Shown: piece after piece, positions 128 through 22,396 of the stretch | Position numbering within the stretch: the first letter of the stretch is position 1 | Layout: each line of letters opens with the position of its first letter | Origin: an uncultured Candidatus Peribacteria bacterium | Lineage (GTDB): Bacteria; Patescibacteriota; Gracilibacteria; UBA1369; JACRIC01 | DNA: 50,463 nt | Assembly (NCBI GenBank): GCA_964617145.1 | Contig: CAZTVN010000001.1 | Location: 1 to 50,463 of the forward strand | Direction of reading: 5' to 3' | Notes under the pieces: generated by a model | Seen by the model: only the letters and a program-made list of their open reading frames with translations | Database searches by the model: none | What the model was told of the DNA's origin: nothing | Program-made: the position numbers and the translations under genes

Positions 128-880
128 ATGAGTGGAATTTCAGAATTACAAGTACATCTTGAGCCAAAAACCGTCTTTACATTATTTGAAGTCATTCCCA
201 TCACTGATACTATTTTAAATATGTGGCTGGTGATGTTTATTCTCATTAGCCTTACTCTCTTCATAAGATTAAAACTTAAATATCTTCCGTCTGGTTTTCA
301 AAATTTGGTTGAATGGAGTTTAGGCGGTTTGCATGATTTTATGGAAAATATTGGAGGGAAAGAAGCTCAAAAACATTTCGTGCCATTCATTACTTTTTTT
401 TTGGTAATACTTTTTTCCAATTGGCTTGGTTTAAGCTTGGGGTTTATTTCCGAACATCTCAATTTACGCGCTCCAACCAGTGATCTTAACTCAACTGCTG
501 CTCTGGCAATTTCTGCTTTTCTTTATTTTGAGTATCAAGGCGTAAAAGCTCATGGTTTTTTCGCTTATCTTGGCCATTTTATTAATATCAAGGCCGTCTT
601 CAAAAAAGGGCCAATGGGTATTATCGATTTTTTTGTTGGAATCTTACACATTGTTTCGGAGTTGGTTCGTCCTATTGCGCTTTCACTTCGTCTTTTTGGT
701 AATATTTTTGGTGGTGAAATCGTCCTTGCCGTTGCTTTCCTTTTAGTTAAACCACTTATTCCCATCCCTTTTATGATATTGGAATTTGTGGTAGGACTGA
801 TTCAGGCTTTTGTTTTTGCTACACTTTTTCTTACCTTTACATCATTAAATACGGCTCATACCATAGAGCAGGCACATTAA
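128..880 (+). CDS. atpB: F0F1 ATP synthase subunit a
   Basis: 250-aa polytopic ORF with the a-subunit signature ...ALSLRLFGNIFGGE... (conserved Arg). First gene of a canonical atpBEFHAGDC order. Confidence 0.9.
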   Translation: MSGISELQVHLEPKTVFTLFEVIPITDTILNMWLVMFILISLTLFIRLKLKYLPSGFQNLVEWSLGGLHDFMENIGGKEAQKHFVPFITFFLVILFSNWLGLSLGFISEHLNLRAPTSDLNSTAALAISAFLYFEYQGVKAHGFFAYLGHFINIKAVFKKGPMGIIDFFVGILHIVSELVRPIALSLRLFGNIFGGEIVLAVAFLLVKPLIPIPFMILEFVVGLIQAFVFATLFLTFTSLNTAHTIEQAH

Positions 881-905
881 TGTATTATTTTTTAACTTTT
901 TTATC

Positions 906-1121
906 ATGAACACCACCTATGTACTCAACTTATTCCTGCCTCTTGCGATCGCTATTCCTTCTATCGCCATAGGCTGGATAGGTTCTAAGGCTATGGAAGC
1001 TATTAGTCGACAACCTGAAGCAACTTCAAAAATACAGCTTAACATGATTCTCGCGATTGTTTTCGCTGAAGGACTTGGTATTCTAAGCTTTGTTTTATCC
1101 CTCATCATGATTAATAAATAA
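906..1121 (+). CDS. atpE: F0F1 ATP synthase subunit c
   Basis: 71-aa helical-hairpin proteolipid with RQPE loop and carboxylate in ...VFAEGLGIL... There is no Ser/Thr after the Glu, so it looks H+-type. Confidence 0.9.
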   Translation: MNTTYVLNLFLPLAIAIPSIAIGWIGSKAMEAISRQPEATSKIQLNMILAIVFAEGLGILSFVLSLIMINK

Positions 1122-1133
1122 TTTTTTAATCTC

Positions 1134-1715
1134 ATGAATTTTTGGATTAAAACCGCAAAAGCGGAAAATTTGGAAACGATTGCTCTAACTCAAGCTCAAC
1201 CTGAAGCTTCGTCTCGTGCTCAATCTCAAGGCTTGAGCTTAGATCCTTCCATTGTTGCTTTTCAGGCTTTGAATTTTATTGTACTGCTTTTTCTTTTAAA
1301 TAAAATTCTTTACAAACCCCTTTTAAAATTGTTGAAGGATCGTGAAAAAAAAATAAAAGAAGGAGTTGAGAATGCTGAAAAAGCCGATTTTTTATTAAAA
1401 GAATCAAGCGCAACGCGAGAAAATATGCTTAAAGAAGCGCGTATCGAAAGTCAGTCCATGATTGAGACGGCACGTAAAAATGGTGAACAGGTTCGTTTTG
1501 ACCTTCTTTCTAAAGCCCAGGACGAAGTTACTCACTTCATTGCTGCTGGGAAAAATGCTTTGGAAGCAGAAGAAGCGAAGGCATTTGAAGAAGTAAAAGT
1601 TAAAGCGGTAGATTTGATTATCCTTTCAGCGGAAAAATTTTTAAAAGGGAAAATTGATCAGGATAAAGATGCCAAATTGATTAAGGAATATTTAGATATT
1701 TATGCTAAATCATAA
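1134..1715 (+). CDS. atpF: F0F1 ATP synthase subunit b
   Basis: 193 aa with one hydrophobic segment (FQALNFIVLLFLLNKIL) followed by a long charged helix. Positioned between c and delta. Confidence 0.75.
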   Translation: MNFWIKTAKAENLETIALTQAQPEASSRAQSQGLSLDPSIVAFQALNFIVLLFLLNKILYKPLLKLLKDREKKIKEGVENAEKADFLLKESSATRENMLKEARIESQSMIETARKNGEQVRFDLLSKAQDEVTHFIAAGKNALEAEEAKAFEEVKVKAVDLIILSAEKFLKGKIDQDKDAKLIKEYLDIYAKS

Positions 1716-2259
1716 AAAAAAATTGATAATTCCTTTTGCGAAAGCTTTACTTGCTATTTCTCGCAAAAACGAAAATTCAAAAAGAATTTTTGCTGAACTT
1801 GTCAGTCTTAAAGAACTTTTCGCGGAAAAAGATTTTCAGGAAGCGCTTTTGAGATTTTCTCATCTTACTTTAGCCGAAATGCATTTGGTTTTGGAAAAAA
1901 CTTTGGGAAAACATTTTGCTCCGGAAATTTTCAATTTTTTAAGTTTATTGGTAGCTTATGATCTTATCCTACAATTTCCCAAAATCGTCGATGCTTATCA
2001 AAAATTTTATTTTGATTCGGAAAATATTAGTCATTTAAAAATTGTTTCCGCGAGAGTCCTTCCTGAGTCTGAACAGACTAAAATTGCTGATCAATTCAGT
2101 CAAAAAAAATATCATCAATATTATTTTTCTTTTGAAGTAGACCACCATTTAATCGGGGGTATTCAAATGTATGAAAATGATCTCCTCGCAGATTATTCAG
2201 TCAAAAATTATCTTAACCATTTGCGTGTTACATTTTTAAGCTTTTCTTATGAAAATTGA
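1702..2259 (+). CDS. atpH: F0F1 ATP synthase subunit delta (OSCP)
   Basis: 185 aa. Overlaps atpF by 14 nt and atpA by 11 nt. Position and length fit delta; sequence divergent. Confidence 0.7.
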
Positions 2260-3766
2260 TGCTAAACAAATTATCGATCATTTGCAGAAACAATTAGAAA
2301 ATCTTGATTTTAAACCAGAAACCGTTGACACAGGGCGTATTCTTTTGGTCGGTGATGGGGTAGCACTCGTTAATGGACTCAGTAATGTTCAAATGGGTGA
2401 AATGATTGAGTTTCCTGGACCTACTTATGGTATGGCGATTAACCTGGCCCAAGAAAGTGTTGGCTGTATTTTATTTGGTGAGGATAAAAATCTTAAAGAA
2501 GGCGATATTGTCAAAAGTACAGGAAAAATCATGGAAGTTCCCACAGGAGACGAGCTTACTGGTAGAGTGCTTAATGCCCTTGGCCAAGCTATTGATGGTA
2601 AGGGGCCTCTTCATTTTAAAAAACTTCGTCCTATTGAACATAAGGCTGAAGGTGTTATTCATCGTAGACCAGTTTCTGTACCTCTACAAACCGGTATTAA
2701 AGCTATTGATGCCATGATCCCGATTGGTAGAGGCCAAAGAGAACTCATTATCAGTGATCGTCAAATTGGTAAAACAGCTATCGCCATAGATACCATTATC
2801 AATCAGAAAGGCCAGAATGTTCATTGTTTTTATGTTGCTATTGGCCAGAAACAATCAACAGTTGCTAATGTAGTGAGAAAATTGGAAGAAACTGGTGCCA
2901 TGGAATATACAACGGTCATTGTTGCAGGGGCTTCTGATCCAGCTGCTTTGAATTTTATCGCTCCTTACTGCGGTTGCGCTATGGCTGAGGCGGTTATGTA
3001 TGAAGGTAAAGACGCTTTAATTATTTATGATGATCTTTCCAAGCATGCTTGGGCTTACCGTGAAGTTTCTTTGCTTCTCCGTCGTCCCCCCGGTCGCGAA
3101 GCCTATCCTGGGGATATTTTTTATCTTCATTCTCGTTTATTGGAAAGAGCTTCCAGGCTTTCTGACGATATGGGAGGTGGTTCGATCACGGCTTTGCCAA
3201 TTATTGAAACTCAGGCTAATGATATTTCTGCTTATATCCCAACTAATGTCATTTCCATTACTGATGGGCAAATCTTTTTGGAGCCGGAACTTTTCTATGC
3301 CGGTAAACGTCCTGCCATTAATGCCGGTATTTCTGTCTCTCGTGTTGGAGGATCTGCTCAAATTCCAGTAATGAAAAAGGTGGCGGGGAATCTTCGTTTA
3401 AATTTGGCTAAATTTCGCGAATTGGAAGCTTTTGCCCAGGTCGGTTCTGATCTTGATGCTCAAACCAAATCACAACTTGAGCGTGGGCAAAGAGCGGTGG
3501 AAGTATTAAAACAGCCTCAGTACTCACCGCTTCCGGTTGCTAAGCAAATTGCTATTATTTATGCGCTCAATAGTGGGCTACTTGATGATATTGAGATAAA
3601 AGACATTTCATCGTTTGAACAAAAATTTTATCAGTTCCTTGATGATAATTATAAAAATTTACAGGAATCTCTTTCCACAGCTCGTAAATTTACAGAGGAG
3701 TTGGAAATGGAGTTGAAAACGGTTATTGAAAAATTCAAAATAAACTGGAATGTCATCACTTCGTGA
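2249..3766 (+). CDS. atpA: F0F1 ATP synthase subunit alpha
   Basis: 505 aa with alpha-type motifs [16 protein letters not shown] (P-loop region), [27 protein letters not shown] and ITDGQIFLE. Confidence 0.96.
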
Positions 3767-4625
3767 TTTAAAACTCAGAATTCGTTCTATCAAATCCACC
3801 CAAAAAATTACCCGGGCTATGGAGATGATTGCTGCATCTAAAATGAAAAAAGCTCAACAACAGGCTTTAAAAGGTCGTCCTTATCTCAACAAACTTTCAG
3901 AAATGATTGCGGTTCTCATCACTTCCAGTGAGCCAAAGTTGACTCATAAACTTTTAGAAAAAAATAATCACAGCAACAATATTGCCTATATTATTATCAC
4001 GGCTGACCGTGGCCTTTGTGGAGCTTTTAATACTAATATTGCTAAAATCAGTCTTGAAAATTTTTCCGTTCGTCAGGATAAAGGACGAAAAATTGTAGCA
4101 GTAGGTAGAAAAATTCGCCAAACCATGCAGAGACTTGGCCAAAGCATTGTTGCTGATTTTGAACAAATGGCCAATGCTCCTGAATTTTTAGACACTCTTG
4201 GTATTGCCAGAATCGTTTTAGATGAATATTTGGCAGGTTCTGTTGATGAAGCATATTTAATTTATAATCATTTTTATTCAACGATTAATCAAAAGCCAGT
4301 TGTCCAGAAATTGTTACCGATTGAACCTGAAACTATTTTTATTGCTGAATCGTCTGCCAATGAAGCGTCAGGTAAAATTGATTATATTTTTGAAGGAGAA
4401 AAAAATATTCTTTTAGACGAACTTTTGCATAGATTGGTCAACATTAAAGTTTATCAGGCGGTGATGGAATCAGCAGCCTCTGAACATTCTGCGCGCATGA
4501 TTTCTATGCATCAGGCTTCTGATAACGCTAAAGAGATTGTTTTGAATTTGACTTTGGAGTACAACAAGACCCGTCAGTCTAAAATTACGACTCAAATTTT
4601 GGAAATTATTGGCGCCGTACAGTAG
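3750..4625 (+). CDS. atpG: F0F1 ATP synthase subunit gamma
   Basis: 291 aa. N-terminus [33 protein letters not shown] and C-terminus ...[16 protein letters not shown] are typical of gamma. Confidence 0.92.
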
Positions 4626-4637
4626 AAAGGCCTTTAG

Positions 4638-6065
<1,428 letters not shown>

Positions 6066-6098
6066 ATGTAATAGTTCATTTCGTTACAGTTCATACTC

Positions 6099-6509
6099 AT
6101 GTTCGACTTAAATATCATTACGGTAGAAAAAAATATTTTTACTGGTAGGGTTTCCTCCGTTATTGTCCCAACAGTAACCGGTGAAATCGGTATCTTGACC
6201 GACCATCATCCTTTAATCGCGAAATTGGATATTGGTGCTATTAAAATAATTTTAGAAGATAATTCTGAACGAACGATTTTTATGGCTGGAGGGTTTTTAG
6301 AAGTGCATAAAAATAAAGTTGCAATACTGGCAGATTTGGCAGAGAATCTTGAAAACATTGCTTTGGAAGAAGCCAGTGCCGCCCGTAAAAAGGCTGAAAC
6401 AATGGTGACTGAAGCAAAAGATGCGGTAACAGCTGAGAAACTTAAAGAGGAACTGCGCATTGTAATGATGAGAGAAAAGCTCGCCCAAATGTCTAAATAT
6501 AAAAAATAG
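6099..6509 (+). CDS. atpC: F0F1 ATP synthase subunit epsilon
   Basis: 136 aa. Beta-sandwich-like N-terminus (..GEIGILTDHHPLIAKL..) plus C-terminal helical hairpin. Last gene of the operon. Confidence 0.85.
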   Translation: MFDLNIITVEKNIFTGRVSSVIVPTVTGEIGILTDHHPLIAKLDIGAIKIILEDNSERTIFMAGGFLEVHKNKVAILADLAENLENIALEEASAARKKAETMVTEAKDAVTAEKLKEELRIVMMREKLAQMSKYKK

Positions 6510-6592
6510 GGATCTCTCTTTTTTAATAAGTCTTGCTTTTTTATCAATATTGTTTAGAATCTGTAAAAATCGGGCATAGTCTTATCTAATGT

Positions 6593-7195
6593 ATGGCTTT
6601 CCTCAAACTTCTTCATAAACTTTTTTTCAATAGGTCGGTAACGGAAAATAAGAGTAAGTTTCTCGATTTACCGGATGAAAGGCTGAGGTCGGAGGAAGGG
6701 GATTTTACGACTCAAGATAAAAAGTCGGACTTACGCGATGAAAAATTAGAGAAAGCCTGTAAAGAATTAAAACAAATAATTGATCAGCTCTATGGCGGTC
6801 GTTCTTTGCGTATCCGTGCTGTAGATGGTGGTTCGTGCAATGGAGAAGAAATCGAATTAACAGCCTTGAATAATGCTTATTATGATATTGAACGTTTTGG
6901 TCTTTCCTTTGTCGCTTCGCCGAGGCATGCCGATATTTTGTTTGTCACAGGTCCTGTTACCCGAAATCTGGAAAGAGCCGTTCTGACTACTTATGAGGCT
7001 GCTCCGGAGCCTTGTATTGTCGTTGCGATAGGCGATGGTGCTTGCACTGGAGGAATTTGGAAAGATTCCTATGCCGTAGTTGGCCCAGTTGAAAAAATCA
7101 TTCCAGTACATTATAAAATTTATGGCAATCCGCCTACTCCAACTCAAATTTTACAAGGCATGTTACATATACTTAAAGATCACGTTCAATCATGA
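6593..7195 (+). CDS. NuoB/HycG/HyfI-like small subunit of a group-4 hydrogenase-related complex, with degenerate Fe-S ligands
   Basis: 200 aa. RIRAVDGGSCNGEEIEL, SPRHADILFVTGPVT, IGDGACTGG and YGNPPTP align by eye to HycG VDCGGCNGCEIEI, SPRHADILLFTG, YGACGNSGG and IPGCPPTP. Two of the four cluster cysteines are replaced (E85, N179). Confidence 0.8.
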   Translation: MAFLKLLHKLFFNRSVTENKSKFLDLPDERLRSEEGDFTTQDKKSDLRDEKLEKACKELKQIIDQLYGGRSLRIRAVDGGSCNGEEIELTALNNAYYDIERFGLSFVASPRHADILFVTGPVTRNLERAVLTTYEAAPEPCIVVAIGDGACTGGIWKDSYAVVGPVEKIIPVHYKIYGNPPTPTQILQGMLHILKDHVQS

Positions 7196-9153
7196 GCACT
7201 GAATTATTCATTCGAATTTGTATTTATATTTGCTTGGTTTTGACCTTGTCAGGTGGAGTTTTTGCACTATTCAGTAAAAAAGATTTTATTCAGCGTATCG
7301 CCCAAATCATTATGTTGACTGCTCTCGTTTGTGGCATTTTAGCTTCGGGAATATTTTTAGTAAAAGATCTTCCAGTTTTATCTCTCTTGGTCACCGATTT
7401 TTCTTTCCCCGGAACATTCATGATGGATAAACTATCGGCAATTTTCTTTTTTTTGGTCAATACGGTTGGTTTCCTGACTGTACTTTATGGCTTCAGATAT
7501 ATATTCAATGAAAAATCACATTATAATATATCTTATCTTCAATTTTTAAGTGCGTTATTTATTTTAGGGATGCAGATGGTGGTTCTCTCTACTACGCCAC
7601 TATTTTTTATTTTCGCATGGGAAATTATGTCTTTTTCCAGTTTTTTGTTAGTAATGGCAGATCTTAAAATCCAATCTGTCAGACCAGCGCTTTTTTATTT
7701 GATCATGACTCATTTGGGGGCTTCAGCCATACTTGCAGGATTTCTCCTTTTGTCCAAGGGCGTTTTCAATCTCAATTTTAACCAGTTGGGATTATCAGCT
7801 TCGGGGCTTCCTGCCAAAACTATTCTGACCGCTTTTTTACTTTTTTTCTTTGGGTTTGGCTCAAAAGCTGGTTTATTCCCTTTTCATGGTTGGCTCCCCG
7901 AAGCCCATCCTCAGGCTCCGAGTCATATTTCTGCTTTGATGTCAGGCATTATGCTTAAAGTTGCCGTATATGGATTTTTGAGAGTTATTTTATATATGCT
8001 GCCCATTCTTCCTCTTTGGGTAGGTTTTTTGGTAGTAATCGTTGGGCTTTTTTCAGCTATTTTTGGAGTGTTTTATTCAGTGATCGAAACAGATATTAAG
8101 CGTATTTTGGCTTTTAGTAGCATAGAAAATCTTGGTCTTATTTTTTCTATCATTGGGATTTATCTTATTGCCCAAAATCAGCAGATGGTTTTGCTTGCGC
8201 AGTTTAGTATGATTGCTGTTTTGTATCAATCGATTTCTCATGCTTTCTTCAAGTCAGGTCTTTTTCTTGTTGCCGGTATTGCAGGACAAGCCTTTCATAC
8301 ACGCAATATTGAAAAAATGGGTGGTATGGCTAGAAAAATGAGGATTTTTTCTTTTGCCGCCTTATTGCTTTCTCTCACTGCTGCAGCTTTGCCGCCTTCT
8401 GGAGCATTTGTCGGAGAATGGCTCGTAATTCAATCGATTATTAACACTGTTTTTTCCGGTATTTTTTCGGTCAAGATTTTATTACTCGGGACATTGATTT
8501 CTTTTGGTTTGGTTGCAGGAATTGCTGTTTTTTCAATGGTTAGATTTTTTGGTATTGGTTTTTTGGCAGAATCTCGAAGTCCCAACGCTGAAATCTCTCA
8601 TGAGCCAGGAGTAGAAATGCTTTTCCCTGTAGCGTTTTTGAGTTTTGTAGCTTTCCTCCTTGGAGCTTTCTCTAAGCCAATAATCGATATAATTGGAGAA
8701 GATTCGTCTTTCATTCCTTTAACTTTTAATCCAATGATTTTATTGGTGATTTTGCTTGGATTATTTTTATTTGCTTTATTATTTAGACGCAGTGGATCAA
8801 CCATGAAAAATGAAAGGCTGTATCATACATGGGACTGTGGTCAGCCGATTAATGCTTCCATGGAATATACCGCCACTACTTTTTCCGCTCCAATCCGTTT
8901 TTTCTTTAGAACTATTTTGAGGGCAAATAAAAAAATTACGGCATATCCAATAATCGATACCAATCCATGGTTGGTTAAAAAGAGCATTCATCTTGAAATC
9001 AACCCAATCTGGGATCAGTATTTTTATAACCCTCTTGTCTGTTCTATTACTTTCCTTTCCTCTACGGTTCGTCGATTACAAAATGGAAATATTCAATTTT
9101 ATATTACGTTGATCCTTATTTCTCTTGTTATCACCGCAATAGTAACTTTATGA
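7192..9153 (+). CDS. HyfB/HycC-like (NuoL family) antiporter-like membrane subunit
   Basis: 653-aa polytopic protein with ...GFGSKAGLFPFHGWLPEAHPQAPSHISALMSGIMLKVAVYG..., typical of HycC/HyfB/NuoL-type subunits. 4-nt overlap with the upstream gene. Confidence 0.85.
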   Translation: MSTELFIRICIYICLVLTLSGGVFALFSKKDFIQRIAQIIMLTALVCGILASGIFLVKDLPVLSLLVTDFSFPGTFMMDKLSAIFFFLVNTVGFLTVLYGFRYIFNEKSHYNISYLQFLSALFILGMQMVVLSTTPLFFIFAWEIMSFSSFLLVMADLKIQSVRPALFYLIMTHLGASAILAGFLLLSKGVFNLNFNQLGLSASGLPAKTILTAFLLFFFGFGSKAGLFPFHGWLPEAHPQAPSHISALMSGIMLKVAVYGFLRVILYMLPILPLWVGFLVVIVGLFSAIFGVFYSVIETDIKRILAFSSIENLGLIFSIIGIYLIAQNQQMVLLAQFSMIAVLYQSISHAFFKSGLFLVAGIAGQAFHTRNIEKMGGMARKMRIFSFAALLLSLTAAALPPSGAFVGEWLVIQSIINTVFSGIFSVKILLLGTLISFGLVAGIAVFSMVRFFGIGFLAESRSPNAEISHEPGVEMLFPVAFLSFVAFLLGAFSKPIIDIIGEDSSFIPLTFNPMILLVILLGLFLFALLFRRSGSTMKNERLYHTWDCGQPINASMEYTATTFSAPIRFFFRTILRANKKITAYPIIDTNPWLVKKSIHLEINPIWDQYFYNPLVCSITFLSSTVRRLQNGNIQFYITLILISLVITAIVTL

Positions 9154-10085
9154 ATTTTTTTGTTTCAATCTATCAATTCATACTTATCTTGCTTATCGCC
9201 CCATTTGCGGCAGGAATAGTTAAGTTTTTTAAGGCTAGACTTCAGGGAAGAAAAGGAGCTTCTCCCATTTTGCCATATTTCACGATATTGACCTTGATGA
9301 AAAAGCAAATGGTCATTTCTAAAAGTACTTCATGGGTTTTCCGGCTGGCTCCATTTGTTGTTTTGGGTACTTCATTATTTATGGTTTTAATATTGCCGCT
9401 GGTTTCTATAGATCGATATTTATCGGCATATAGCAATTTTGTTATTATCGCTGGAATACTCATGCTTGGAACCATCTTTTTAATTTTCGGAGGACTTGAA
9501 TCGGCTTCAGCGTTTGGTGGCATGGGCTCAAGTCGTGAAATGACTATTGCTTCTTTAGTTGAGCCAACTATGATCTTGATTTTTGGTGCACTGGCTTTAA
9601 ATAGTGGTAGTTCAGAAATTAGCAGGATGGTCTCAGACCTTAATATAACGACGCAACCTTTTATCATACCGAGTCTGTTGGCGCTGGTTCTCCTGGCGCT
9701 CGCGGAAAATGCTCGTTATCCTGTCGATAATCCTGCTACACATCTGGAGTTAACCATGGTACACGAAGCAATGATCCTTGAATATTCTGGTCCTTTTTTG
9801 GCTTTGATAGAATATGCTTCGTTTCTTAAACTTACCCTGTTTTCTGTTTTGTTGATGAACTTGATTTATCCGATTGGTTTATTGGAAAGCTCTTCAGATC
9901 TTTTGTCTTATCTTTTGTCTCCTTTATTTCTTATCGCCAAAGTTATTGTCATGATGTTTTTGCTCGCTTTTTTAGAAAGTTCTATCGTGAAAATGCGTTT
10001 TTATAGAGTGCATGAGTTTTTGGCTGTTGCATTTTTTTTAAGCCTCGGTGGTATTTTTTTGACACTTGTTAATACGATTTTATGA
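9150..10085 (+). CDS. HycD/HyfC-like (NuoH family) membrane subunit
   Basis: 311 aa. The N-terminus ..APFAAGIVKFFKARLQGRKGASPILPYFTILTLMKKQ...WVFRLAPFVV parallels the HycD/NuoH N-terminal pattern. Confidence 0.82.
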   Translation: MNFFVSIYQFILILLIAPFAAGIVKFFKARLQGRKGASPILPYFTILTLMKKQMVISKSTSWVFRLAPFVVLGTSLFMVLILPLVSIDRYLSAYSNFVIIAGILMLGTIFLIFGGLESASAFGGMGSSREMTIASLVEPTMILIFGALALNSGSSEISRMVSDLNITTQPFIIPSLLALVLLALAENARYPVDNPATHLELTMVHEAMILEYSGPFLALIEYASFLKLTLFSVLLMNLIYPIGLLESSSDLLSYLLSPLFLIAKVIVMMFLLAFLESSIVKMRFYRVHEFLAVAFFLSLGGIFLTLVNTIL

Positions 10086-10753
10086 TCTCCATTCACGTCA
10101 TAATAGATTTTTTTGCAGGGGGATTGCTTCTGACTACATTCCTTATGATGGGGAAAATACGCCTCATACCGATGTTAAGATACTTTGCAGTCAGTTCCTT
10201 TTTTTTGGCAGGCCTTGGGGCAAGCATGTCTCTTTTGAAAGAAGAAAAAGATTTTTTTATAGCTCCTTTGGCAACCATTTTGTTTAAGGTAGTATTTATA
10301 CCATTGATTATCAATTTTACTGCCAAAAAACTACCTTCTTCCAATCAACTCAAAATGTATTTTAGGCCTGCAACAACTTCTTTTATGTTTTTATTTGTGT
10401 TGATTTTAAGTGGAATAATTGTTAGGAATTTTCCGGTCACTTTTGATGGTACTTTCGATAATCCTTTTTTCTTCAAGAGTTTATTGTTTATTTCAATCAG
10501 CCTGATCCTTTCAGGGATTTTATTGACTGTAATCAGAAAAGATTTGTTTTCACAGGTTTTGGGTTTGCTTACCATGGAAAATGGAATTGCTGCCTTTGGT
10601 CTCGTTACACTTGATGGTATCCCTATTTTTTTAGAAATGGGAATTTCTTTTGTAATTATTATAAGTACGGTAATTTTAGCGGTTTTGATTGATAGAGTTC
10701 ATGAAGTTTATACGATTGGCGACACTGAAAATTTAAAAGAATTAATTGATTAA
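10082..10753 (+). CDS. HyfE-like small membrane subunit (NuoK-related)
   Basis: 223-aa polytopic protein. C-terminal ..LGLLTMENGIAAFGL...EMGISFVIIISTVILAVLI.. resembles E. coli HyfE (..CLMENGSHLVL..). Confidence 0.75.
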   Translation: MISIHVIIDFFAGGLLLTTFLMMGKIRLIPMLRYFAVSSFFLAGLGASMSLLKEEKDFFIAPLATILFKVVFIPLIINFTAKKLPSSNQLKMYFRPATTSFMFLFVLILSGIIVRNFPVTFDGTFDNPFFFKSLLFISISLILSGILLTVIRKDLFSQVLGLLTMENGIAAFGLVTLDGIPIFLEMGISFVIIISTVILAVLIDRVHEVYTIGDTENLKELID

Positions 10754-10762
10754 CTTATTATA

Positions 10763-12256
10763 ATGGCGATTGTAATTTTTATTTTTTTCCCGGTAACCGC
10801 GCTCCTGCCTCTTTTTTTTAAACAGGTTAAGCAGGTACGTCTGATGGCTCTTGTCATGGGTATAGTCAGTTCGTTGATAACCTTTTTGTTCCTGATAAAA
10901 CCGCTATTCTCCAAGCAGGCTTTCATCCTTGGAAATGTACTCCGGATAGATCGCTTTTCGGCTTTTATGGGAATTTTGATCATTTTGCTTTATTTTTTCA
11001 CGGTTATCGTCAGTCATAGATATATTAAAGAAGAAAATCATGAAAAAATTCTCGATTTAAAACAAATCAGATTGTATTTTTTATTATTGCCTATTTTTGC
11101 TCTCGCGATGCTCACCGTGGTGATGGTTGATAATTTAGGTTTGCTCTGGTTGGCTTTGGAAATAACAACTTTAGCCACCACTCCTTTAGTAGCTCTTTAT
11201 AGAAAAGATGGCTCACTCGAGGCAGCATGGAAATATATTATTCTTTGTTCTTTGGGAATAAGCTTGGGTTTATTAGCTGTTTTATTTATCAGTTACGCTG
11301 GTATCAATAGCAATTTAAGTCCTTTTGATTCATTTTCTTTGAGAATGCTTACGATGAACGCTTTAAAGATGCCGCCAGCTATTATGCAATGGGCTTTTCT
11401 CTTTGCTTTTATTGGTCTTGGCACCAAAATTGGATTTTTTCCTATGCACACATGGCTTCCTGATGCTCATGGACGCACTCCGTCTCCCATTTCGGCTATG
11501 CTTTCTGGAATACTGCTCAATGTAGCTTTTTATTCTTTAATGAGAATCAAATTTATTACTGACATAGCGCTTCGTTCATCAGAGTGGACTAATAATCTCT
11601 TTTTGGCATTTGGTGTTATTTCTCTCGTAGCAAGTGCTTTTTTTCTCTATATTCAACATAATTATAAAAGAATGTTGGCCTATTCCAGCATGGAGCATAT
11701 GGGGATATTGGCAATAGCCGTGGGACTCGGACCACTTGGAATGGTTCCTGCATTGATGCATATGTTTGCCCATACATTGTCCAAATCATTACTTTTTTTT
11801 GGTTCAGGTGAAATCTTATTAGCCACTAAAACGGCTAAAATTCATAATGTAAAAAATTTGATTCATACTATTCCTGTTACCGGCACTCTTTTTATTTTGG
11901 GTATGTTTTCTCTTCTTGCTGTTCCACCTTTTGCTGCTTTTTCTAGTGAAATATTGATACTTGCTGCAATAGTTAACAAGGGGCATCTGGTTATTTTCTT
12001 TTTGATGTTATTGGCTCTGGCGCTTGTTTGTGTAAGTTTGTTTAGACATACTTTTAGGATGTTTTGTCTTCATCAAACTGATGATAATCATCAAGGGGAT
12101 GATTACCAAATTGAAAAAAAATTTACTGAAAAATTTAATTTGACCCATCTTGTCATGGTTGTAGAAATTGTGCTTTTGGCTATTTCTGGAATTTTCATGT
12201 TAACCCCAGAAGGTTTTAACTTTTTTTCAGGCATTGCTCAATCAATATTTTTATAA
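10763..12256 (+). CDS. HyfF/HyfD-like (NuoM/N family) antiporter-like membrane subunit
   Basis: 497-aa polytopic protein with ..GLGTKIGFFPMHTWLPDAHGRTPSPISAMLSGILLNVAFY.. and ..RMLAYSSMEHMG.. motifs. Confidence 0.85.
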   Translation: MAIVIFIFFPVTALLPLFFKQVKQVRLMALVMGIVSSLITFLFLIKPLFSKQAFILGNVLRIDRFSAFMGILIILLYFFTVIVSHRYIKEENHEKILDLKQIRLYFLLLPIFALAMLTVVMVDNLGLLWLALEITTLATTPLVALYRKDGSLEAAWKYIILCSLGISLGLLAVLFISYAGINSNLSPFDSFSLRMLTMNALKMPPAIMQWAFLFAFIGLGTKIGFFPMHTWLPDAHGRTPSPISAMLSGILLNVAFYSLMRIKFITDIALRSSEWTNNLFLAFGVISLVASAFFLYIQHNYKRMLAYSSMEHMGILAIAVGLGPLGMVPALMHMFAHTLSKSLLFFGSGEILLATKTAKIHNVKNLIHTIPVTGTLFILGMFSLLAVPPFAAFSSEILILAAIVNKGHLVIFFLMLLALALVCVSLFRHTFRMFCLHQTDDNHQGDDYQIEKKFTEKFNLTHLVMVVEIVLLAISGIFMLTPEGFNFFSGIAQSIFL

Positions 12257-12258
12257 TT

Positions 12259-13830
12259 ATGGAAACTAAAAGTCATCTCAGTATTGACGGTGTGTTTCAA
12301 GAACAGATGAGTCATAATCAAAAGAATTTGCGAATTTTTAAGACAGATTCTGAAAATTTTACCAGAGTTGTAGCTTCTCTCGTTTCTCAGAATTATCGAC
12401 TGGCTTGGTTGTTTGGGACCGATGATAGAGCAGAACATAAGACTTTTGGAGTCCATGCCGTACTCGCCATGGGAGGTAAAAATGAATGGTTGCAGATCTC
12501 AGCCGCTCTTTCCGAAGCAAATCCAGAGTATCCTGCGTTGACGAAAACTATTATGGCAGCTATTTGGTATGAAAAATACCTTATGGATATGTTTGGAATA
12601 GTGGCTAAAGGTCACCCTGATCCACGTCGTTTGGTTCATCATGAGAATGTTCCGCGTGACATTCATCCTTTAAGAAAAGATTTTGAATGGAATACTGTTA
12701 TGGAAAAAGATGATGTTCCTTATCCGATGCTCCATGTCGGAGGCAATGGTATTTATGAGATTCCAGTTGGGCCCATTCATGCCGGAATTATTGAGCCGGG
12801 ACATTTTCGTTTTAATGTTGCGGGCGAAAGGATTGTTAATCTTGAAGGTAAATTGTTTTTTACCCATAAGGGTGTGGAGAAATTATTGGAAGGGAAATCT
12901 GTTTTTGCCGCATTGCCCTATGTCGAGAGAATTTCTGATGATTCTGCGGCTTCACATGTTTTGACTTTTGTACAGACTTTGGAATTGATCGCGGGTGTAC
13001 ATATTTCAGAAAGGGCTAGTCTTTTAAGGACATTGATTGCTGAACTAGAGAGATTAACCATGCACATTCATGATATTTCAAATATTGCCGGAATGGGAAC
13101 AGGCTATACTATTATGGCTGCCCATGGCTTTCGGATCAAAGAAAATTTGGTAAGACTTTCTGAAAAAATTTTTGGAAATCGTTTTTGGAGAGGGTTTATT
13201 ATTCCAGGAGGAGTGGTTCGTGATTTGTCTGAAGCCGAGCTCGATTTGATCTCTCAAACAGTTCAGGAGATTATGGCTGACATGCATGGGCTACTTAATA
13301 TTGGTCTTAAATCAGACGGTCTTTTGGAAAGAATGATAACTGCCGGTGTTCTTACTTTGGATGCAGCCAAAGCTTATGGTGCTGTTGGAATTGCCGTTCG
13401 CGCCATTGATCAAAAAATGGACACCAGGATAGATCATCCTTATGTTTCTTATGATAGATTGAAATTTCAGGTAGTGACCAAAACAGGTGGTGATGTTTTT
13501 GCCAGATTTATGGTTCGCGTCGGTGAATTGGATGTTTCTTCTCAAATGATCGAAGAACTTTGCACATTGCTTCGTACTGTGAAGGGCGAAACGAAGGTTG
13601 TTTTGGTTTTGCATTCAGGAGAAGCTTTGTCGGCGGTGGAGGGTTTTCGAGGTGAAATCCTTCACTTTGTACGCCTCAATGATAAAGGATTCATTGAACG
13701 CATGGCAGTTCGCGATCCATCATTTTGTAACTGGCCACTCTTTGGAGAAATTGGACCAGGCAATATCGTGCCAGATTTTCCACTCTGTAATAAATCGCTC
13801 AATTTAAGTTATTCAGGGAATGACTTATGA
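12259..13830 (+). CDS. HycE/HyfG-like large subunit (NuoC-NuoD fusion) lacking the [NiFe] cysteines
   Basis: 523 aa. NuoC-like N-terminus (..YEKYLMDMFGIVAKGHPDPRRL..) then GPIHAGIIEPGHFRF. The L1 motif reads ERISDDSAASH where group-4 hydrogenases have ER-x-CG-x-C-xxx-H. The C-terminus reads SLNLSYSGNDL where they have S-x-DPC-x-SC-x-DR. Confidence 0.85.
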   Translation: METKSHLSIDGVFQEQMSHNQKNLRIFKTDSENFTRVVASLVSQNYRLAWLFGTDDRAEHKTFGVHAVLAMGGKNEWLQISAALSEANPEYPALTKTIMAAIWYEKYLMDMFGIVAKGHPDPRRLVHHENVPRDIHPLRKDFEWNTVMEKDDVPYPMLHVGGNGIYEIPVGPIHAGIIEPGHFRFNVAGERIVNLEGKLFFTHKGVEKLLEGKSVFAALPYVERISDDSAASHVLTFVQTLELIAGVHISERASLLRTLIAELERLTMHIHDISNIAGMGTGYTIMAAHGFRIKENLVRLSEKIFGNRFWRGFIIPGGVVRDLSEAELDLISQTVQEIMADMHGLLNIGLKSDGLLERMITAGVLTLDAAKAYGAVGIAVRAIDQKMDTRIDHPYVSYDRLKFQVVTKTGGDVFARFMVRVGELDVSSQMIEELCTLLRTVKGETKVVLVLHSGEALSAVEGFRGEILHFVRLNDKGFIERMAVRDPSFCNWPLFGEIGPGNIVPDFPLCNKSLNLSYSGNDL

Positions 13831-13869: not shown

Positions 13870-15969
13870 TTAAGAAAAATCAATGGTGAAATTTTTTGGA
13901 AAAATTTTTAGAACTTTTGGCAATTTCTCAAAACGCGAGTCTAGAATATATATTTTCTTATTTTCGCTATTTTCTTGAGTAAAGTCATATATGATCCTTT
14001 TTAATCGAAGTACTACCAGTGGAATCGAAAAATCTTCAAAAATGTTTTTGAAGATTTTTGTTTTTTCTTGTATGAGATGATCGCTTAAAATTTCGAACGG
14101 TAAGCGATGTATGATGAGAGTTTGAATAATGTTTTCGCTTTTTCCATCTCTCAATATTTCTCCCAGGAAGTATTGATTCCCTATTATGAGAGATTTTTGG
14201 GGTTCTTTTAAGAAAAGTGAAATAATTTTTCCTGTACCACCAGAAATTTTTTGACTTAATATCGTTTTCCCTTGTATGCGTTCGATGAGCTCTTTATGAA
14301 GGACATCTGTGGTGTTTTGAGAAGTTGTTAAAAGAAAATGAGAGCCGTTGTGTTTTTCGATAATTTGTTTCAAGATGTCCAGAGTTTCATTAAAATTTCC
14401 CGGAGCAAAAGGAGGTTTGAGATTTTTTGCTATTATTATTTGTGGCGTTTGTGGTTTTTGTTGTTTTTGTGGCCTTTGTGTCGAGATTTTTTCTTCTGAT
14501 TTTATTTGAAGCGTTTTTATGTCGTCGTTTAAGTTTAAAAGTTTTTGAAAAAAATCAAATTTGTCCTCTATGGTGAGGTTTTCGGAAATAAAAATAACAT
14601 TTTTGAAAGCTTTTAGGGCTTCTTTCAGATTGTTTTCTGGATTTTTAGGTGTGGTGTAGAGTCTAGTTTCATCGTTTTTTTCAAATGTCCAACTTACGGT
14701 GTTTTCGTCTTCTTTTTGAATTTTTTCATCATGATTTATTTTTTTTGAGGTAGTGAGTATTTTTCGAAGCTGGTCGTAAAAGACATCTCCTTTATCGATA
14801 ATGAGGATTTTATCTGAAAAAAGGTCTAATTTTTTGAAAATAAGCGAATACGGTATAACTATGCAATTTTCTTTTAAGGCTCGTGAAAGGGCTTTTTTAT
14901 AAAAACAAATATCTTCTGTACAATTTAGGCAGTCGGATTCGTTGCCGCAGAGGGTATTCCAAACCTCATACTCTTTTCCTGAAGGTTCGATTTCTTCTTG
15001 AGAACCTTCCTTTAATGTTTTTTCTTTGAGCAAAATTTTTATAAGCAGAGTAATTTCCTGTTGTTCGAAATATTCTTTCTCTTTTAATTTTTTGAGTTTT
15101 TGCAGGCAAAGATAGTAATCGGCGTTAAAAAGCGTTATGAAATTTTCGGTTAAAAGCGAGGAAGATTGAGATACCGCGATAATAATTTTTTCTTTTTTAA
15201 GATTTTGAATAAGATTTTTGAGATCGTATTTTGGTATTTCGATCAAGCTTACAGTTTTTTGTTTGATATTTTCCTTGATGAATATTTCTCCTTCATAAGG
15301 AAACAGTGTAGTTTCCTGTTTTTCTTTTTTTACTTTTTCTTTGGCGGAGGTGTCCAATTTTTGTGATGCAACGACGTTTTTTAGCATGTTCTTAGATTTT
15401 TTGCAAAAAAGATTTTGTAATGGCCATGTGCTTTTTTTGCTGAGTGTTATTATATTTTCACGTATTTCTTCGGGGATTTCTTCAATTTTTCCCAAGAGAT
15501 AGTCAAAGAGTTTTTTTGACGCGAGTGCATCAAAAAGCGCACGATGTTTTGTTTCATGATCGATTTCAAGGATTTCCGTGAGAATTTCTAAACTGTATGA
15601 AGTTTGATTTGGAAGAAGGATTTTTGCCAGATCCAAAGTGCAGTATTCTTTATTCGTGATTGGGATATTTTTTGCACGGAGAAAATTTGTATCGAAGGAA
15701 ATATTGTGTCCGATAATCGGTATATCTTCAATAAAAGATAAAAATTCGTTTTTTATTTCATCGAGTAGGGGCGCGTTTTTGAGGTCTTCATTCGTTATCC
15801 CTGTTATTTGACTTATGTTTATCGGTATTCCTTTTTCGATTCGGATGAGAGAAGAAAAGGTTTGATGTATTTTTTTATGATCAAATTTGACCGCAGCGAT
15901 TTCTATCGGTTCGTCTTTTTTCGGATCAAAACCTGTTGTTTCAATATCGAGACTTATGAATAGGCACAT
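13870..15969 (-). CDS. DnaQ-type 3'-5' exonuclease fused to a DinG/XPD-like helicase scaffold with degenerate ATPase motifs
   Basis: 699 aa. Exo motifs ISLDIETTGFDP, IIGHNISFDTNFL and HRALFDALA. Cys cluster C341/C347/C350/C355. C-terminal part (..HFLLTTSQ.., ..LIIGNQYFLGE.., ..IIHRLPFE) resembles DinG helicase domain 2. No GxGK(T/S) or DEAH box at the expected places. Confidence 0.7.
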   Translation of the reverse strand: MCLFISLDIETTGFDPKKDEPIEIAAVKFDHKKIHQTFSSLIRIEKGIPINISQITGITNEDLKNAPLLDEIKNEFLSFIEDIPIIGHNISFDTNFLRAKNIPITNKEYCTLDLAKILLPNQTSYSLEILTEILEIDHETKHRALFDALASKKLFDYLLGKIEEIPEEIRENIITLSKKSTWPLQNLFCKKSKNMLKNVVASQKLDTSAKEKVKKEKQETTLFPYEGEIFIKENIKQKTVSLIEIPKYDLKNLIQNLKKEKIIIAVSQSSSLLTENFITLFNADYYLCLQKLKKLKEKEYFEQQEITLLIKILLKEKTLKEGSQEEIEPSGKEYEVWNTLCGNESDCLNCTEDICFYKKALSRALKENCIVIPYSLIFKKLDLFSDKILIIDKGDVFYDQLRKILTTSKKINHDEKIQKEDENTVSWTFEKNDETRLYTTPKNPENNLKEALKAFKNVIFISENLTIEDKFDFFQKLLNLNDDIKTLQIKSEEKISTQRPQKQQKPQTPQIIIAKNLKPPFAPGNFNETLDILKQIIEKHNGSHFLLTTSQNTTDVLHKELIERIQGKTILSQKISGGTGKIISLFLKEPQKSLIIGNQYFLGEILRDGKSENIIQTLIIHRLPFEILSDHLIQEKTKIFKNIFEDFSIPLVVLRLKRIIYDFTQENSENKKIYILDSRFEKLPKVLKIFPKNFTIDFS

Positions 15970-15994: not shown

Positions 15995-17077
15995 TTAGAT
16001 GATTTCTACAAATTTATCGAAAATAAAGTTTGTATCTATGGGGCCAGGCGTTGATTCGGGATGAAATTGAACTGCCATGAAAGGCAGGGAAGCGTGTTTA
16101 ATTCCTTCTACTGTCTGATCATTGGCGTTTTCAAACCATACTTTCCAATCTTTTAGCAGTGTTTTTTTATCGATCGCAAAGCCGTGATTTTGTGAGGTTA
16201 TATAGCAACGACCAGTTTCAAGATCGGTTACTGGTTGATTTTGTGAACGATGGCCGTATTTGAGTTTATAGGTTTTTGCGCCTGAGGCTATGCCTAAAAC
16301 TTGAGCGCCAAGACAAATCCCGAGGGTTGGAATTTTATGCTCCATTGATTTTTTTACGAGTGCATGTGTTTCCTTGATAACACATGGATCTCCCGGGCCG
16401 TTCGTAATGAATACCGCATCGAACTTGAGTTTGTTTTTGAAAAAGTCGTAATTCCAAGGAACTCGATGTACGGTAATGTTTCTTTTTAGAAAATTTCTTA
16501 GAATATTGTTTTTCATTCCACAATCGATGATAATGATGGATTTTTGACCTCTTTTATAGGTGATTGGTTTTTTAATACTTACTTTGGATACGATGTTTTC
16601 TTTATTAGGATCATAAAAGTTGATGGTTACCGGATCGATATTTTCTGGAATAATTTTCCCAAGCATAGTTCCTTTTTCTCGCAGTTTTTGAGTTAAGGCG
16701 CGGGTATCGATTCCTGTGATTGCTGGAATATTGTTTTCTTTCAGCCAGTCGTTGAGACTTTTTTTTGCATACCAATGGCTATAATTTCCCGAATATTCCG
16801 AAACAATTAATCCTTTTATTTGTATTTTTTCACTTTCAAAATTTTTGTTAATTTTGTCTTTTTCATGCGTATTTTCAGGAACCCCATAATTACCAATGAG
16901 CGGATAAGTGAGGACAAGAATTTGTCCAAAATATGAGGAATCTGTTAAGGTTTCAGGATAGCCTACCATCCCTGTATTAAAGACTACTTCTCCACTTTCA
17001 GGAATTTTGGCCCCAAATGAAATTCCTTCAAAGATGGATCCGTCTTCCAGAATGAGTTTTGCTTGTTTTTTATCCAT
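15995..17077 (-). CDS. carA: carbamoyl-phosphate synthase small (glutaminase) subunit
   Basis: 360 aa. N-terminal CPSase-small domain (..VFNTGMVGYPETLTDSSYFGQILV..) and class-I amidotransferase triad context (LGICLGAQVL, VQFHPES). Confidence 0.93.
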   Translation of the reverse strand: MDKKQAKLILEDGSIFEGISFGAKIPESGEVVFNTGMVGYPETLTDSSYFGQILVLTYPLIGNYGVPENTHEKDKINKNFESEKIQIKGLIVSEYSGNYSHWYAKKSLNDWLKENNIPAITGIDTRALTQKLREKGTMLGKIIPENIDPVTINFYDPNKENIVSKVSIKKPITYKRGQKSIIIIDCGMKNNILRNFLKRNITVHRVPWNYDFFKNKLKFDAVFITNGPGDPCVIKETHALVKKSMEHKIPTLGICLGAQVLGIASGAKTYKLKYGHRSQNQPVTDLETGRCYITSQNHGFAIDKKTLLKDWKVWFENANDQTVEGIKHASLPFMAVQFHPESTPGPIDTNFIFDKFVEII

Positions 17078-18185: not shown

Positions 18186-19124
18186 TTGAATACATTTATG
18201 GAGTATACTAACGCCAATATTCTTTCCTCAAAGCAGTTTGATTCAAGGAGTCTCGAACAGCTTTTTAAAGTTGCCAAAGAGTTAGAGCCTATTGCTCAAA
18301 AGAAACTTCCTTCTGATCTCCTTCGAGGGAAGGTTCTTGCTAGTGTTTTTCTTGAACCTTCAACTCGTACTCGTTTTTCGTTTGAAACGGCTATGAATCG
18401 TCTCGGAGGGCGTGTCGTAACCATAGCCGATCTTCATCAATCTTCTTTAACCAAAGGGGAAACGCTTCAAGACATGGCTCATACTATTTCTTTTTTTAGC
18501 GATGTTACTGTTATGAGGCATCCACAGGCTTTCTCTGTTTCTGTTTTTTCTGAAGGTTCTTTAGTTCCTGTCATTAACGCAGGAGATGGTTCAAATGAGC
18601 ATCCTACTCAAGCTATTGCGGATATTTATACGCTTCATAAAGAGAAGGGTTCTATTGATGGGTTGACGATTGCTTTTCTTGGAGATTTGAAATATTCGAG
18701 GGTGGTTCATTCTCTTTCGAGTCTTCTTTGCCATTTTAGTGTGAAATTTATTTTTGTTTCACCTCAGGCACTTCGTATGCCTGAAAGTGAACGACAGTTT
18801 CTTCATGAAAAAGGTGTTTATTTTGAGGAGACGGAAAATTTAGAGGATGCTATTAAAAAATCTGAGGCTATTTATGTCACACGTATTCAGCGTGAACGTT
18901 TTGAAAATCAAGATGAATATGAAAGACTTTATGGCGTTTATATTATTAGTAAATCTTTGATTGAACGTTGTAACAGTGATGTTCTTATCATGTCTCCTCT
19001 TCCTCGATGTGGCGAAATTACTCAAGATACGGATCAACTTGATGGCGCTTGTTATTTTCGGCAGGTTTCCAATGGTGTTTCTGTACGAATGGCGCTTTTA
19101 AGTTTGGTTTTGGGAAAGATTTAA
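18186..19124 (+). CDS. pyrB: aspartate carbamoyltransferase catalytic subunit
   Basis: 312 aa with EPSTRTRFSFE, HPTQAIAD and SPLPR motifs. The track start is TTG 18186; the in-frame ATG at 18198 is an alternative start. Confidence 0.93.
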   Translation: MNTFMEYTNANILSSKQFDSRSLEQLFKVAKELEPIAQKKLPSDLLRGKVLASVFLEPSTRTRFSFETAMNRLGGRVVTIADLHQSSLTKGETLQDMAHTISFFSDVTVMRHPQAFSVSVFSEGSLVPVINAGDGSNEHPTQAIADIYTLHKEKGSIDGLTIAFLGDLKYSRVVHSLSSLLCHFSVKFIFVSPQALRMPESERQFLHEKGVYFEETENLEDAIKKSEAIYVTRIQRERFENQDEYERLYGVYIISKSLIERCNSDVLIMSPLPRCGEITQDTDQLDGACYFRQVSNGVSVRMALLSLVLGKI

Positions 19125-19163
19125 AAATATGCCTTCTGGCTGTTTTTTTCATGTAAGTCGCTC

Positions 19164-20492: not shown

Positions 20493-20552
20493 GATTGCCG
20501 ATAGAGGCTAAACCGTGTTTTAATAGATTTATCTTCTTTTTAAGATGTAAAC

Positions 20553-21485: not shown

Positions 21486-21515
21486 TTTTTTGAGCTAATT
21501 TTTTCTTCTTTTATT

Positions 21516-22361: not shown

Positions 22362-22396
22362 AGCGTGGGGTACAATTTTTATTTCAAGAAGCTTCT

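Follow-up and report, generated by a model that had tools for sequence, protein, structure and literature searches.

A hydrogenase-related complex that appears to lack redox cofactor sites, encoded beside the ATP synthase of a Peribacteria bacterium, as a candidate proton-gradient-coupled module

What can a membrane complex laid out like a hydrogenase do when its metal ligands are gone? This question is posed by six genes at positions 6593-13830 (forward strand) of a 50,463-nucleotide stretch of DNA from an uncultured Candidatus Peribacteria groundwater bacterium (GenBank assembly GCA_964617145.1, contig CAZTVN010000001.1), the whole of which is called the window here. The genes start 83 nt past atpC and, judged by the sequences of their products, the complex that they encode is a six-subunit descendant of the Hyf-type group-4 hydrogenases and complex I. 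We favour, with a probability of about 0.6, the reading that this complex operates in concert with the F-type ATPase, as a module coupled to the proton gradient and independent of redox chemistry, and that in relatives it is probably a CO2/bicarbonate machine resembling the DAB and NDH-1MS systems. Its kind is already known, namely the energy-converting hydrogenase-related (Ehr) complexes and, among these, the Ehr clade of the Candidate Phyla Radiation (CPR); what is apparently new is the clade-wide loss of ligands in the small subunit, the constant set of six genes, and a neighbourhood in which atp, carbonic anhydrase (CA) and ehr genes lie together.

The cluster stands behind an F-type ATP synthase operon, atpB-E-F-H-A-G-D-C (128..6509, forward strand, from the open reading frame (ORF) calls), which comprises atpB (128-880), atpE for the c subunit (906-1121), atpF (1134-1715), atpH (1702-2259), atpA (2249-3766), atpG (3750-4625), atpD (4662-6065) and atpC (6099-6509). 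Pfam matches for these genes were OSCP, ATP-synt_ab, ATP-synt and ATP-synt_DE_N, and atpB, atpE and atpF were identified by where their ORFs lie, by what they encode and by tblastn hits on atp operons of other genomes; Pfam scans of the window genes were run on the identical NCBI contig JACPHG010000009.1 (GCA_016188725.1, a metagenome-assembled genome of Candidatus Peregrinibacteria). After an 83-nt spacer (6510..6592) follow, all on the forward strand, a NuoB/HycG/MbhJ-like small subunit, S (6593..7195, 200 aa; Pfam Oxidored_q6, E=2e-26); a HyfB-like antiporter-like subunit of the NuoL/MrpA type (7192..9153, 653 aa; Pfam Proton_antipo_M), for which NCBIfam 'hydrogenase 4 subunit B' is the best model at 469 bits, under its 667-bit cutoff; a HycD/HyfC/NuoH-like subunit (9150..10085, 311 aa; Pfam NADHdh, E=3e-29); a HyfE-like, NuoK-related membrane subunit (10082..10753, 223 aa; NCBIfam 'hydrogenase 4 membrane subunit', E=5.5e-17, under cutoff), whose homologues match Oxidored_q2 weakly; a HyfF-like antiporter-like subunit of the NuoN/M and MbhH type (10763..12256, 497 aa; Pfam Proton_antipo_M), with NCBIfam 'hydrogenase 4 subunit F' as best model at 318 bits, again under cutoff; and a NuoC-NuoD fusion or HycE/HyfG-like large subunit, L (12259..13830, 523 aa; Pfam Complex1_30kDa and Complex1_49kDa), which is 100% identical to an NCBI protein annotated as Candidatus Peregrinibacteria. 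Three junctions are 4-nt overlaps and two are gaps of 9 and 2 nt. At its 3' end the cluster faces a DinG-like exonuclease gene that runs towards it (13870-15969, reverse strand). An earlier note on this DNA had described the same layout: its ORF coordinates, overlaps, gaps and 83-nt distance match the ORF calls exactly, its six subunit assignments agree with Pfam and NCBIfam, and both antiporter hallmark motifs that it quoted are present in the sequence. At 200 aa the window S exceeds its relatives (172-183 aa) by some 20 residues, owing to a very charged insertion near the N-terminus (ENKSKFLDLPDERLRSEEGDFTTQDKKSDLRDEKLEK...; 20-25 residues or so, located within residues ~20-58) that follows a conserved LLxxLFFxxxVTE start.

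The large subunit has lost the ligands of the NiFe site. Its best solved relative is HycE of the Escherichia coli formate hydrogenlyase (FHL; 7z0s_E, E=1e-65), and in the alignment of the two L reads ERISDDSAASH where HycE has DRVCGICGFAH, and NLSYSGND where HycE has DPCYSCTD. As the earlier note had claimed, all four NiFe cysteines are substituted (C241 by S226, C244 by S229, C531 by S517 and C534 by G520), and L does not possess the four cysteines of the L1 (RxCGxCxxxH) and L2 (DPCxxCxxR/H) motifs that define a group-4 [NiFe] hydrogenase. The cysteines are likewise absent from the close L homologues listed, bar a few in which the motifs are unresolved or truncated. The replacement motifs, ER[ILV]S.D...SH and KSLNLSYSG.DL, recur almost throughout the 120 closest homologues listed, which are 56-100% identical to L and come from Uhrbacteria, Moranbacteria, Parcubacteria, Peregrinibacteria and a few others. 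In an alignment to the complex I subunit NUCM (9iho_D), the quinone-site tyrosine is replaced by D227.

The small subunit has been altered in a similar way at the positions that would hold the proximal [4Fe-4S] cluster, as read from alignments to MbhJ (6cfw_J) and HycG (7z0s_G) and from an alignment of S from 87 loci. The first cysteine of the canonical GSCNGCE motif corresponds to C82 of the window, its sole in-register cysteine, and is mostly threonine or serine, occasionally asparagine, in the CPR clade; the second corresponds to E85, and glutamate is invariant in the clade; the third, the cysteine of the canonical G.C, is G149, an invariant glycine; and the fourth, from GCPP, is N179, where the clade has aspartate or asparagine. 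The clade motifs are GS[T/S/C]N[A/G]EE, GDGAC and G[D/N]PP, and none of the four positions has a clade-conserved cysteine. The earlier note had credited S with two of the four Fe-S cysteines; of these C82 is indeed in register, but C151 sits two residues past the third position, where a cysteine is common in the clade though not universal. S, which lacks the four cysteines expected of a group-4 small subunit, cannot hold a proximal [4Fe-4S] cluster as far as these alignments can tell.

A partner that might supply electrons was likewise not found. No NuoI/HycF or HycB counterpart was detected in the window cluster or in some 80 related loci, in line with what the earlier note had said of the cluster itself, and no ferredoxin-like or formate dehydrogenase (FDH) gene was seen in the same ~80 loci. 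A screen for ORFs with a CxxCxxCxxxC motif, which covered the related loci and not the ORFs of the window, found none in the cluster and a single, unrelated one in 84 loci. Genes for hyp, Ni-transport, FDH or ferredoxin-type proteins did not turn up in the Pfam-scanned part of the 50-kb window, which reached up to the ribosomal-protein block at ~34.2-50.4 kb, and neither hyp genes nor a 2x[4Fe-4S] ferredoxin-like subunit were seen in 84 related loci. The features of complex I are missing too: the quinone-site tyrosine is replaced, the N2 ligands are gone and no NuoI-like gene was found. The complex is thus without a recognizable redox cofactor site. Given the missing NiFe ligands, the missing ligand set of the proximal cluster and the missing ferredoxin-like subunit, it is ruled out as a hydrogenase, and an electron-transfer role of any kind is very improbable.

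The residues associated with proton movement present a different picture. Conservation was measured over 44-77 clade members, depending on the subunit. Of 55 homologues of the HyfB-like subunit, 95% or more share E144, K225, K256, K354, H232, H239 and H350, with E144 and K225 invariant; motif reading assigns E144 to transmembrane helix (TM) 5, K225 to TM7, K256 to TM8 and K354 to TM12. The HyfF-like subunit has invariant E133, K222 and K341 and, compared with MbhH (6cfw_H), retains the TM5 glutamate and the TM7 and TM12 lysines, with asparagine in place of the TM8 lysine. Invariant acidic residues in the HycD-like subunit number nine (E130, E138, E186, D193, E200, E206, E221, E276 and E289), and the HyfE-like subunit keeps an invariant pair of membrane glutamates (E166 and E185). 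A full complex-I-type set of proton-pathway residues is thus retained, namely the TM5 glutamate and the TM7 and TM12 lysines of the two antiporter-like subunits, the NuoH-like acidic residues and the NuoK-like glutamate pair. The most conserved parts of the complex are its two peripheral subunits. Positions conserved in at least 95% of sequences make up 36% of S (77 clade members) and 28% of L, as against 9-21% of the membrane subunits; in S they include E85, E86, E88 and D148. New acidic residues are invariant in both proteins (E85, E86 and D148 of S, and D228 of L), as is S226 of L. It is a speculation that the old gas channel and proton path have been put to a new use in the peripheral arm.

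Where does such a complex belong? The Ehr were reportedly defined by Marreiros and colleagues in 2013. Like them, the window encodes a Cys-less homologue of the group-4 hydrogenase large subunit and NuoD alongside NuoB-, NuoH- and Mrp/NuoL-M-N-like partners, and in a rough neighbour-joining tree L groups with Cys-less sequences. The likeness to Ehr that the earlier note had drawn, with the remark that this cluster is more stripped down, was borne out, since the S ligands are lost as well and a NuoI-like subunit is missing. The closest homologues of L are from CPR bacteria (Uhrbacteria, Moranbacteria, Parcubacteria and Peregrinibacteria) and form a distinct clade in the tree. Jaffe et al. 2020 (PMC7304191) described the CPR sequences as a monophyletic Ehr subclade that is without metal-binding cysteines and 'likely cannot interact with H2'. 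Their complexes resemble that of the window in combining a Cys-less group-4-like L with NuoB-, NuoH- and antiporter-like subunits, but the published account covers the L phylogeny and the missing cysteines only, its gene-context analysis being limited to group 3b; the loss of the S ligands, the missing NuoI-like subunit and the link to atp are what the window adds, and its relatives add the link to CA genes. The role of Ehr has been described as unknown (bioRxiv 10.1101/765248), and complex I, hydrogenase and ATP synthase are nowhere mentioned by Beam et al. 2020 (PMC7507113). In the searchable literature, itself incomplete, we found no prior report of the adjacency to atp or CA genes, of the S ligand loss or of the fixed six-gene composition.

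To place the cluster among its relatives, one genome per species was scanned with an L alignment, which listed mostly non-CPR Hyf and Ehr loci, followed by tblastn and motif scripts. The loci listed and the tree reveal a very wide radiation of Cys-less, Ehr-type large subunits beside the true Hyf/Hyc hydrogenases, and two gene orders, the canonical B-D-E-F-L-(FeS)-S and the order S-B-D-E-F-L seen in the window. Wherever a related locus spans the entire cluster, the same six genes occur in the same order, with no Fe-S ORF. E. coli Hyf (HyfABCDEFGHI) and FHL (HycBCDEFG, 7Z0S) supply the best models for the six subunits (HyfB, HyfC/HycD, HyfE, HyfF, HyfG/HycE and HyfI/HycG), but in the window the S gene comes first and not last, HyfA/HycB, HyfH/HycF, HyfD, FDH and hyp/hycI are missing, and the ligands are replaced. 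The S-first order without a NuoI-like gene is also found in Mycobacterium, Streptomyces and Rokubacteria. The actinobacterial version is a six-gene 'Hyc-like' operon (Mycobacterium persicum, L059; Streptomyces, L042 and L067), of the Mycobacterium tuberculosis Rv0082-Rv0087 type, which shares with the window the order S-B-D-E-F-L, the lack of a NuoI-like gene between L and S, and an L that has no NiFe cysteines and ends NKSFNLSYAGNDL. It differs in that its small subunits keep the four cluster cysteines (GSCNGCE, G.C and GCPP), as do those of Rokubacteria, in that neither atp nor CA genes adjoin it, and in that its L is only ~37-40% identical to that of the window. Indeed, S retains GSCNGCE...GCPP in many other Ehr relatives (Nitrospirota, Actinobacteria, Rokubacteria), and ligand loss in S is limited, apart from two isolated cases, to the CPR clade and a sister clade of Daviesbacteria, a Saccharibacteria locus and bins labelled Thermoleophilia, Endomicrobiales and Bdellovibrionales. 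The isolated cases are a Chloroflexota locus (L024), where L has intact NiFe cysteines and S has lost C1, C3 and C4 (GSENSCD, GDEAC, GDPP), and a Dehalogenimonas locus (L075), a Cys-less Ehr outside the CPR clade whose S carries GSDNAAE and GNPP. By these two cases, the Fe-S ligands may have been lost more than once.

Is the position behind atpC an accident? The earlier note had seen no convincing terminator after atpC, and a consensus scan of 6510-6592 found neither a terminator-like site nor a sigma-70-type promoter, although CPR promoters may deviate from the sigma-70 consensus; RNA folding of the same segment gave no stable hairpin, the fold energy being no better than that of shuffles (z=0.31). 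Scanning metagenome contigs with an S alignment specific to CPR yielded 80 loci, from which near-duplicates were removed at 95% nucleotide identity. The cluster is immediately preceded by an atp operon in the same orientation in 22/33 of the non-redundant loci that have at least 4 kb of upstream sequence, so that the link proposed from the window is no isolated case, and in 24/39 of those with at least 2 kb; the distance from atp to the cluster is 0.1-3.4 kb in the related loci. In a further locus, L087, the atp operon is 2.7 kb downstream of the cluster on the opposite strand, and two loci of the sister clade (L006, from Daviesbacteria, and L015) have atp genes nearby. Among the 80 loci listed in the genome survey, atp matches accompany Fe-S-less clusters only, and none was found within 10 kb of the Ehr or hydrogenase loci that retain the Fe-S ligands. 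The L087 operon, from a Peregrinibacteria Gr01 contig (VMFU01000002.1, L087:14269-21015), reads atpD-atpC-(ATPase_gene1)-atpB-atpE-atpF-atpH-atpA-atpG, an order that resembles an N-ATPase operon and is unlike the canonical F-type order of the window. Na+-binding c subunits are known by a Gln / Ser-Thr / Tyr motif. Because the window c subunit (...FAEGLGILSF...) lacks this signature, its ATP synthase is probably H+-coupled; a Na+-coupled enzyme was set aside on that ground.

The second recurrent neighbour is a CA. Where a gene intervenes between atpC and S, or follows L immediately in the same orientation, it very often encodes one, and four families take this place. Of the 35 loci that extend 1.5 kb or more on each side of the cluster, atp precedes the cluster in 23 and a CA-like gene adjoins it on the same strand in 21; both are found in 19 and neither in 10. 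Family Y (~350 aa) is CsoSCA-like, with Pfam PF20686 above threshold, a match to PDB 8thm (E=7e-12) and an invariant CxDxR...H...C (L120:8842-9879, L129:8157-9209, L100:12908-14071, L126:8099-9163, L138:9372-10466, L150:17331-18410 and L087:12662-14239). Family B2 (~315 aa) matches Pfam Pro_CA_2 above threshold, and family G (~200-270 aa) is a gamma-CA of the CcmM/Cam type (3kwc, E=1e-32) with its three Zn histidines present; genes of one or other of these two kinds stand right after the L gene (L130:17640-18446, L140:17607-18221, L144, L149, L152:17653-18258, L001:11813-12754, L136:17308-18264 and L127). Family X (~210 aa), found between atpC and the S gene (L086:3650-4285, L092:8628-9284, L097:9256-9891 and L156:9237-9866), is a new and divergent, CPR-only family without a Pfam match, in which C39, D41, H114 and C117 are invariant. 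Its AlphaFold model (pLDDT 85) has only beta-CAs among the 50 top Foldseek PDB matches listed, at E ~1e-3 and TM-scores of 0.3-0.48, and predicted fold and motif suggest that it is beta-CA-like; a profile of its sequence gave no significant match in the PDB (E=0.52). The family amounts to 23 clusters in 5.8 billion proteins, all annotated 'hypothetical', and is without the arginine of the CxDxR dyad. A comparison of the profiles of families X and Y was not significant (hhalign probability 0.9%), and the two are treated as separate. The CsoSCA-like CAs in CPR bacteria, beta-CAs of the carboxysome-shell type, always adjoin the Ehr cluster, with catalytic C, D, R, H and C conserved; to our knowledge, CPR bacteria have no carboxysomes. 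A DUF4349 membrane protein often follows the gamma-CA or Pro_CA_2 gene (L116:17325-18281 and family f1).

What, then, might the complex do? In the reading that we favour, it would be a redox-independent module for proton translocation and conformational coupling, whose genes are probably co-transcribed with those of the F1Fo ATPase and whose proton circuit would be shared with it. The ATPase of a fermentative CPR cell would probably hydrolyse ATP to build a proton gradient, which the complex would then spend. The recurrence of non-homologous CA neighbours suggests that in relatives the gradient most likely drives the vectorial conversion of CO2 and bicarbonate by an attached CA, as in DabAB and NDH-1MS/CupA. 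The window genome may encode a CA partner at another place; otherwise the complex may be an H+-coupled cation or pH module only. There are precedents for such coupling. Cyanobacterial NDH-1MS with CupA is an energy-coupled CA on complex-I-type antiporter-like subunits. DAB2 is a CA that depends on the proton motive force and is bound to a complex-I-type antiporter-like subunit (bioRxiv 10.64898/2026.03.13.711513). If our reading holds, the CPR complex would resemble DabAB in that a CA-like protein is genetically tied to a Proton_antipo_M subunit and a proton gradient is the driver. It differs from both systems in that no DabA (DUF2309) or CupA homologue accompanies it, its CA neighbours being of other families; from DAB, which is without the NuoH/B/C/D-like subunits that the CPR complex retains; and from NDH-1MS, which is driven by a redox arm that the CPR complex lacks. 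The arrangement that marks DAB, a beta-CA-like DabA beside a single antiporter-like DabB, is not that of the window. More tentatively, CPR Ehr could represent a third independent energy-coupled CA made from complex I parts, redox-free, Hyf-derived and of six subunits, in which interchangeable CAs would use an ATPase-generated gradient for CO2/bicarbonate conversion, or the reverse coupling, and the hydrogenase arm would act as a docking or coupling element; this extension we consider possible but doubtful.

It should be emphasized that several observations weigh against this reading. No CA-like ORF was found in the 50-kb window with hidden Markov models of the four CA families or with tblastn, which places it in a small group of loci that have atp but no adjacent CA gene (L116, L121, L132 and L142 are others), and the two nearest relatives, L084 and L090, have neither atp nor CA adjacency. 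Adjacency to both is therefore frequent, not obligatory, and shared synteny among related genomes is partly inheritance and not independent evidence. The beta-CA-like assignment of family X depends on the low Foldseek scores given above, and the HyfF-like subunit has lost its TM8 lysine. The CA of DAB and NDH-1MS is carried by an antiporter-like subunit and does without a NuoB/C/D-like arm, so the analogy leaves the conservation of the peripheral arm unaccounted for. Ion translocation, co-transcription and coupling to a CA are, moreover, all inferred. The same applies to the view of the earlier note, that the cluster serves ion translocation or coupling rather than H2 metabolism, which is supported by the lost ligands, the kept proton residues and the atp context.

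It could be argued that the complex is simply a secondary antiporter of the Mrp (Mnh/Pha) kind, exchanging Na+ (or K+) for H+ at the expense of the ATPase gradient to maintain pH or sodium homeostasis, with the arm as a structural cap and the CAs supplying or buffering protons. Mrp is likewise redox-free, runs on a proton gradient, and has two Mrp/Nuo antiporter-like subunits and a NuoK-like one, and the charged residues of these subunits are invariant in the CPR complex; the neighbouring ATP synthase c subunit has no Na+ motif, and the lack of a CA gene in the window would fit. The cluster consists of the six families listed, with no further ORFs, however, so that MrpE/F/G equivalents are absent from what should be an MrpA-G set, and it keeps NuoH-, NuoB- and NuoCD-like subunits, the last two the most conserved of all, none of which a plain antiporter needs. 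In addition, the recurrence of four unrelated CA families beside the cluster indicates a more specific link to CO2 and bicarbonate. We regard this explanation as plausible, though unlikely.

Less probable still is that the complex remains an oxidoreductase, served by a separately encoded electron-input module or by an unconventional cofactor bound to the new Ser, Asp and Glu residues, as in an FDH-Ehr system. Some Ehr complexes have indeed been proposed to pair with formate dehydrogenase in an FDH-Ehr redox complex (PMC6349859), the invariance of S226 and D228 in L and of E85 and D148 in S implies that some site is under selection, and only 50 kb of the genome is in view. On the other hand, the four cluster positions are without a clade-conserved cysteine, the related loci offer no ferredoxin-like or FDH gene, the quinone-site tyrosine has become aspartate, and the conserved neighbours are ATP synthase and CAs, not redox enzymes. 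The notion of a decaying, functionless FHL/Hyf remnant that lies behind atpC by accident might be entertained given that CPR genomes are reduced and that all cofactor ligands are gone, but all six ORFs are intact, with translational coupling between them, the family runs to thousands of sequences, the replacement motifs are conserved, purifying conservation is strong and highest in the supposedly 'dead' subunits, and the atp adjacency recurs; the conservation data effectively refute it. An ordinary split hydrogenase of the Ech or FHL type, whose hyp maturation genes and HycF-like subunit would lie beyond the visible 50 kb, is scarcely credible, as the ligands are missing in residue-level alignments to solved HycE, HycG and MbhJ, the conserved flanks (ER...H; KS.N/D.SYS.xD) make misalignment unlikely, and without the ligands neither a NiFe site nor a proximal cluster could be assembled by any maturation system.

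Other genes of the window form the setting of the complex. A P-type cation ATPase of type II (Ca2+/Na+/K+-like, 944 aa; 29853-32687, reverse strand) provides this very small genome with another primary ion pump beside the ATP synthase, which may bear on the ion economy. A pyrimidine biosynthesis cluster (carA, pyrB, pyrC, pyrD, pyrK-like, pyrE-like and pyrF) neighbours the Ehr cluster, at 15995-17077 (reverse strand) and 18186-28822, with carA lacking an adjacent carB. Carbamoyl-phosphate synthase uses up bicarbonate, and the proximity of this cluster may be a coincidence or may fit the inorganic-carbon idea. The window also holds a ClpB gene, downstream of which are two overlapping ORFs of 471 and 107 aa without a Pfam match (25066-26481 and 26456-26779, both reverse strand), and a putative block of ribosomal-protein genes at ~34.2-50.4 kb, named from ORF sizes only. 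Cumulative GC skew climbs to ~36-40 kb and then drops, while AT skew is strongly negative over the whole window; the pattern may stem from the switch in orientation of the genes where the ribosomal-protein block begins, or it may mark a feature of replication.

CPR bacteria are not known to possess an electron transport chain, which raises the question of how their membrane potential is managed, and the complex described here is a candidate use for a gradient made by the ATPase. Its non-homologous CA neighbours point to the handling of inorganic carbon or pH, which is relevant to the RuBisCO-based nucleotide salvage of CPR bacteria and to biosynthesis that requires bicarbonate. Ehr complexes are widespread, and these findings turn a complex of 'unknown function' into a testable hypothesis. 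If that hypothesis is true, the part of complex I that couples and pumps protons does not depend on electron transfer to function.

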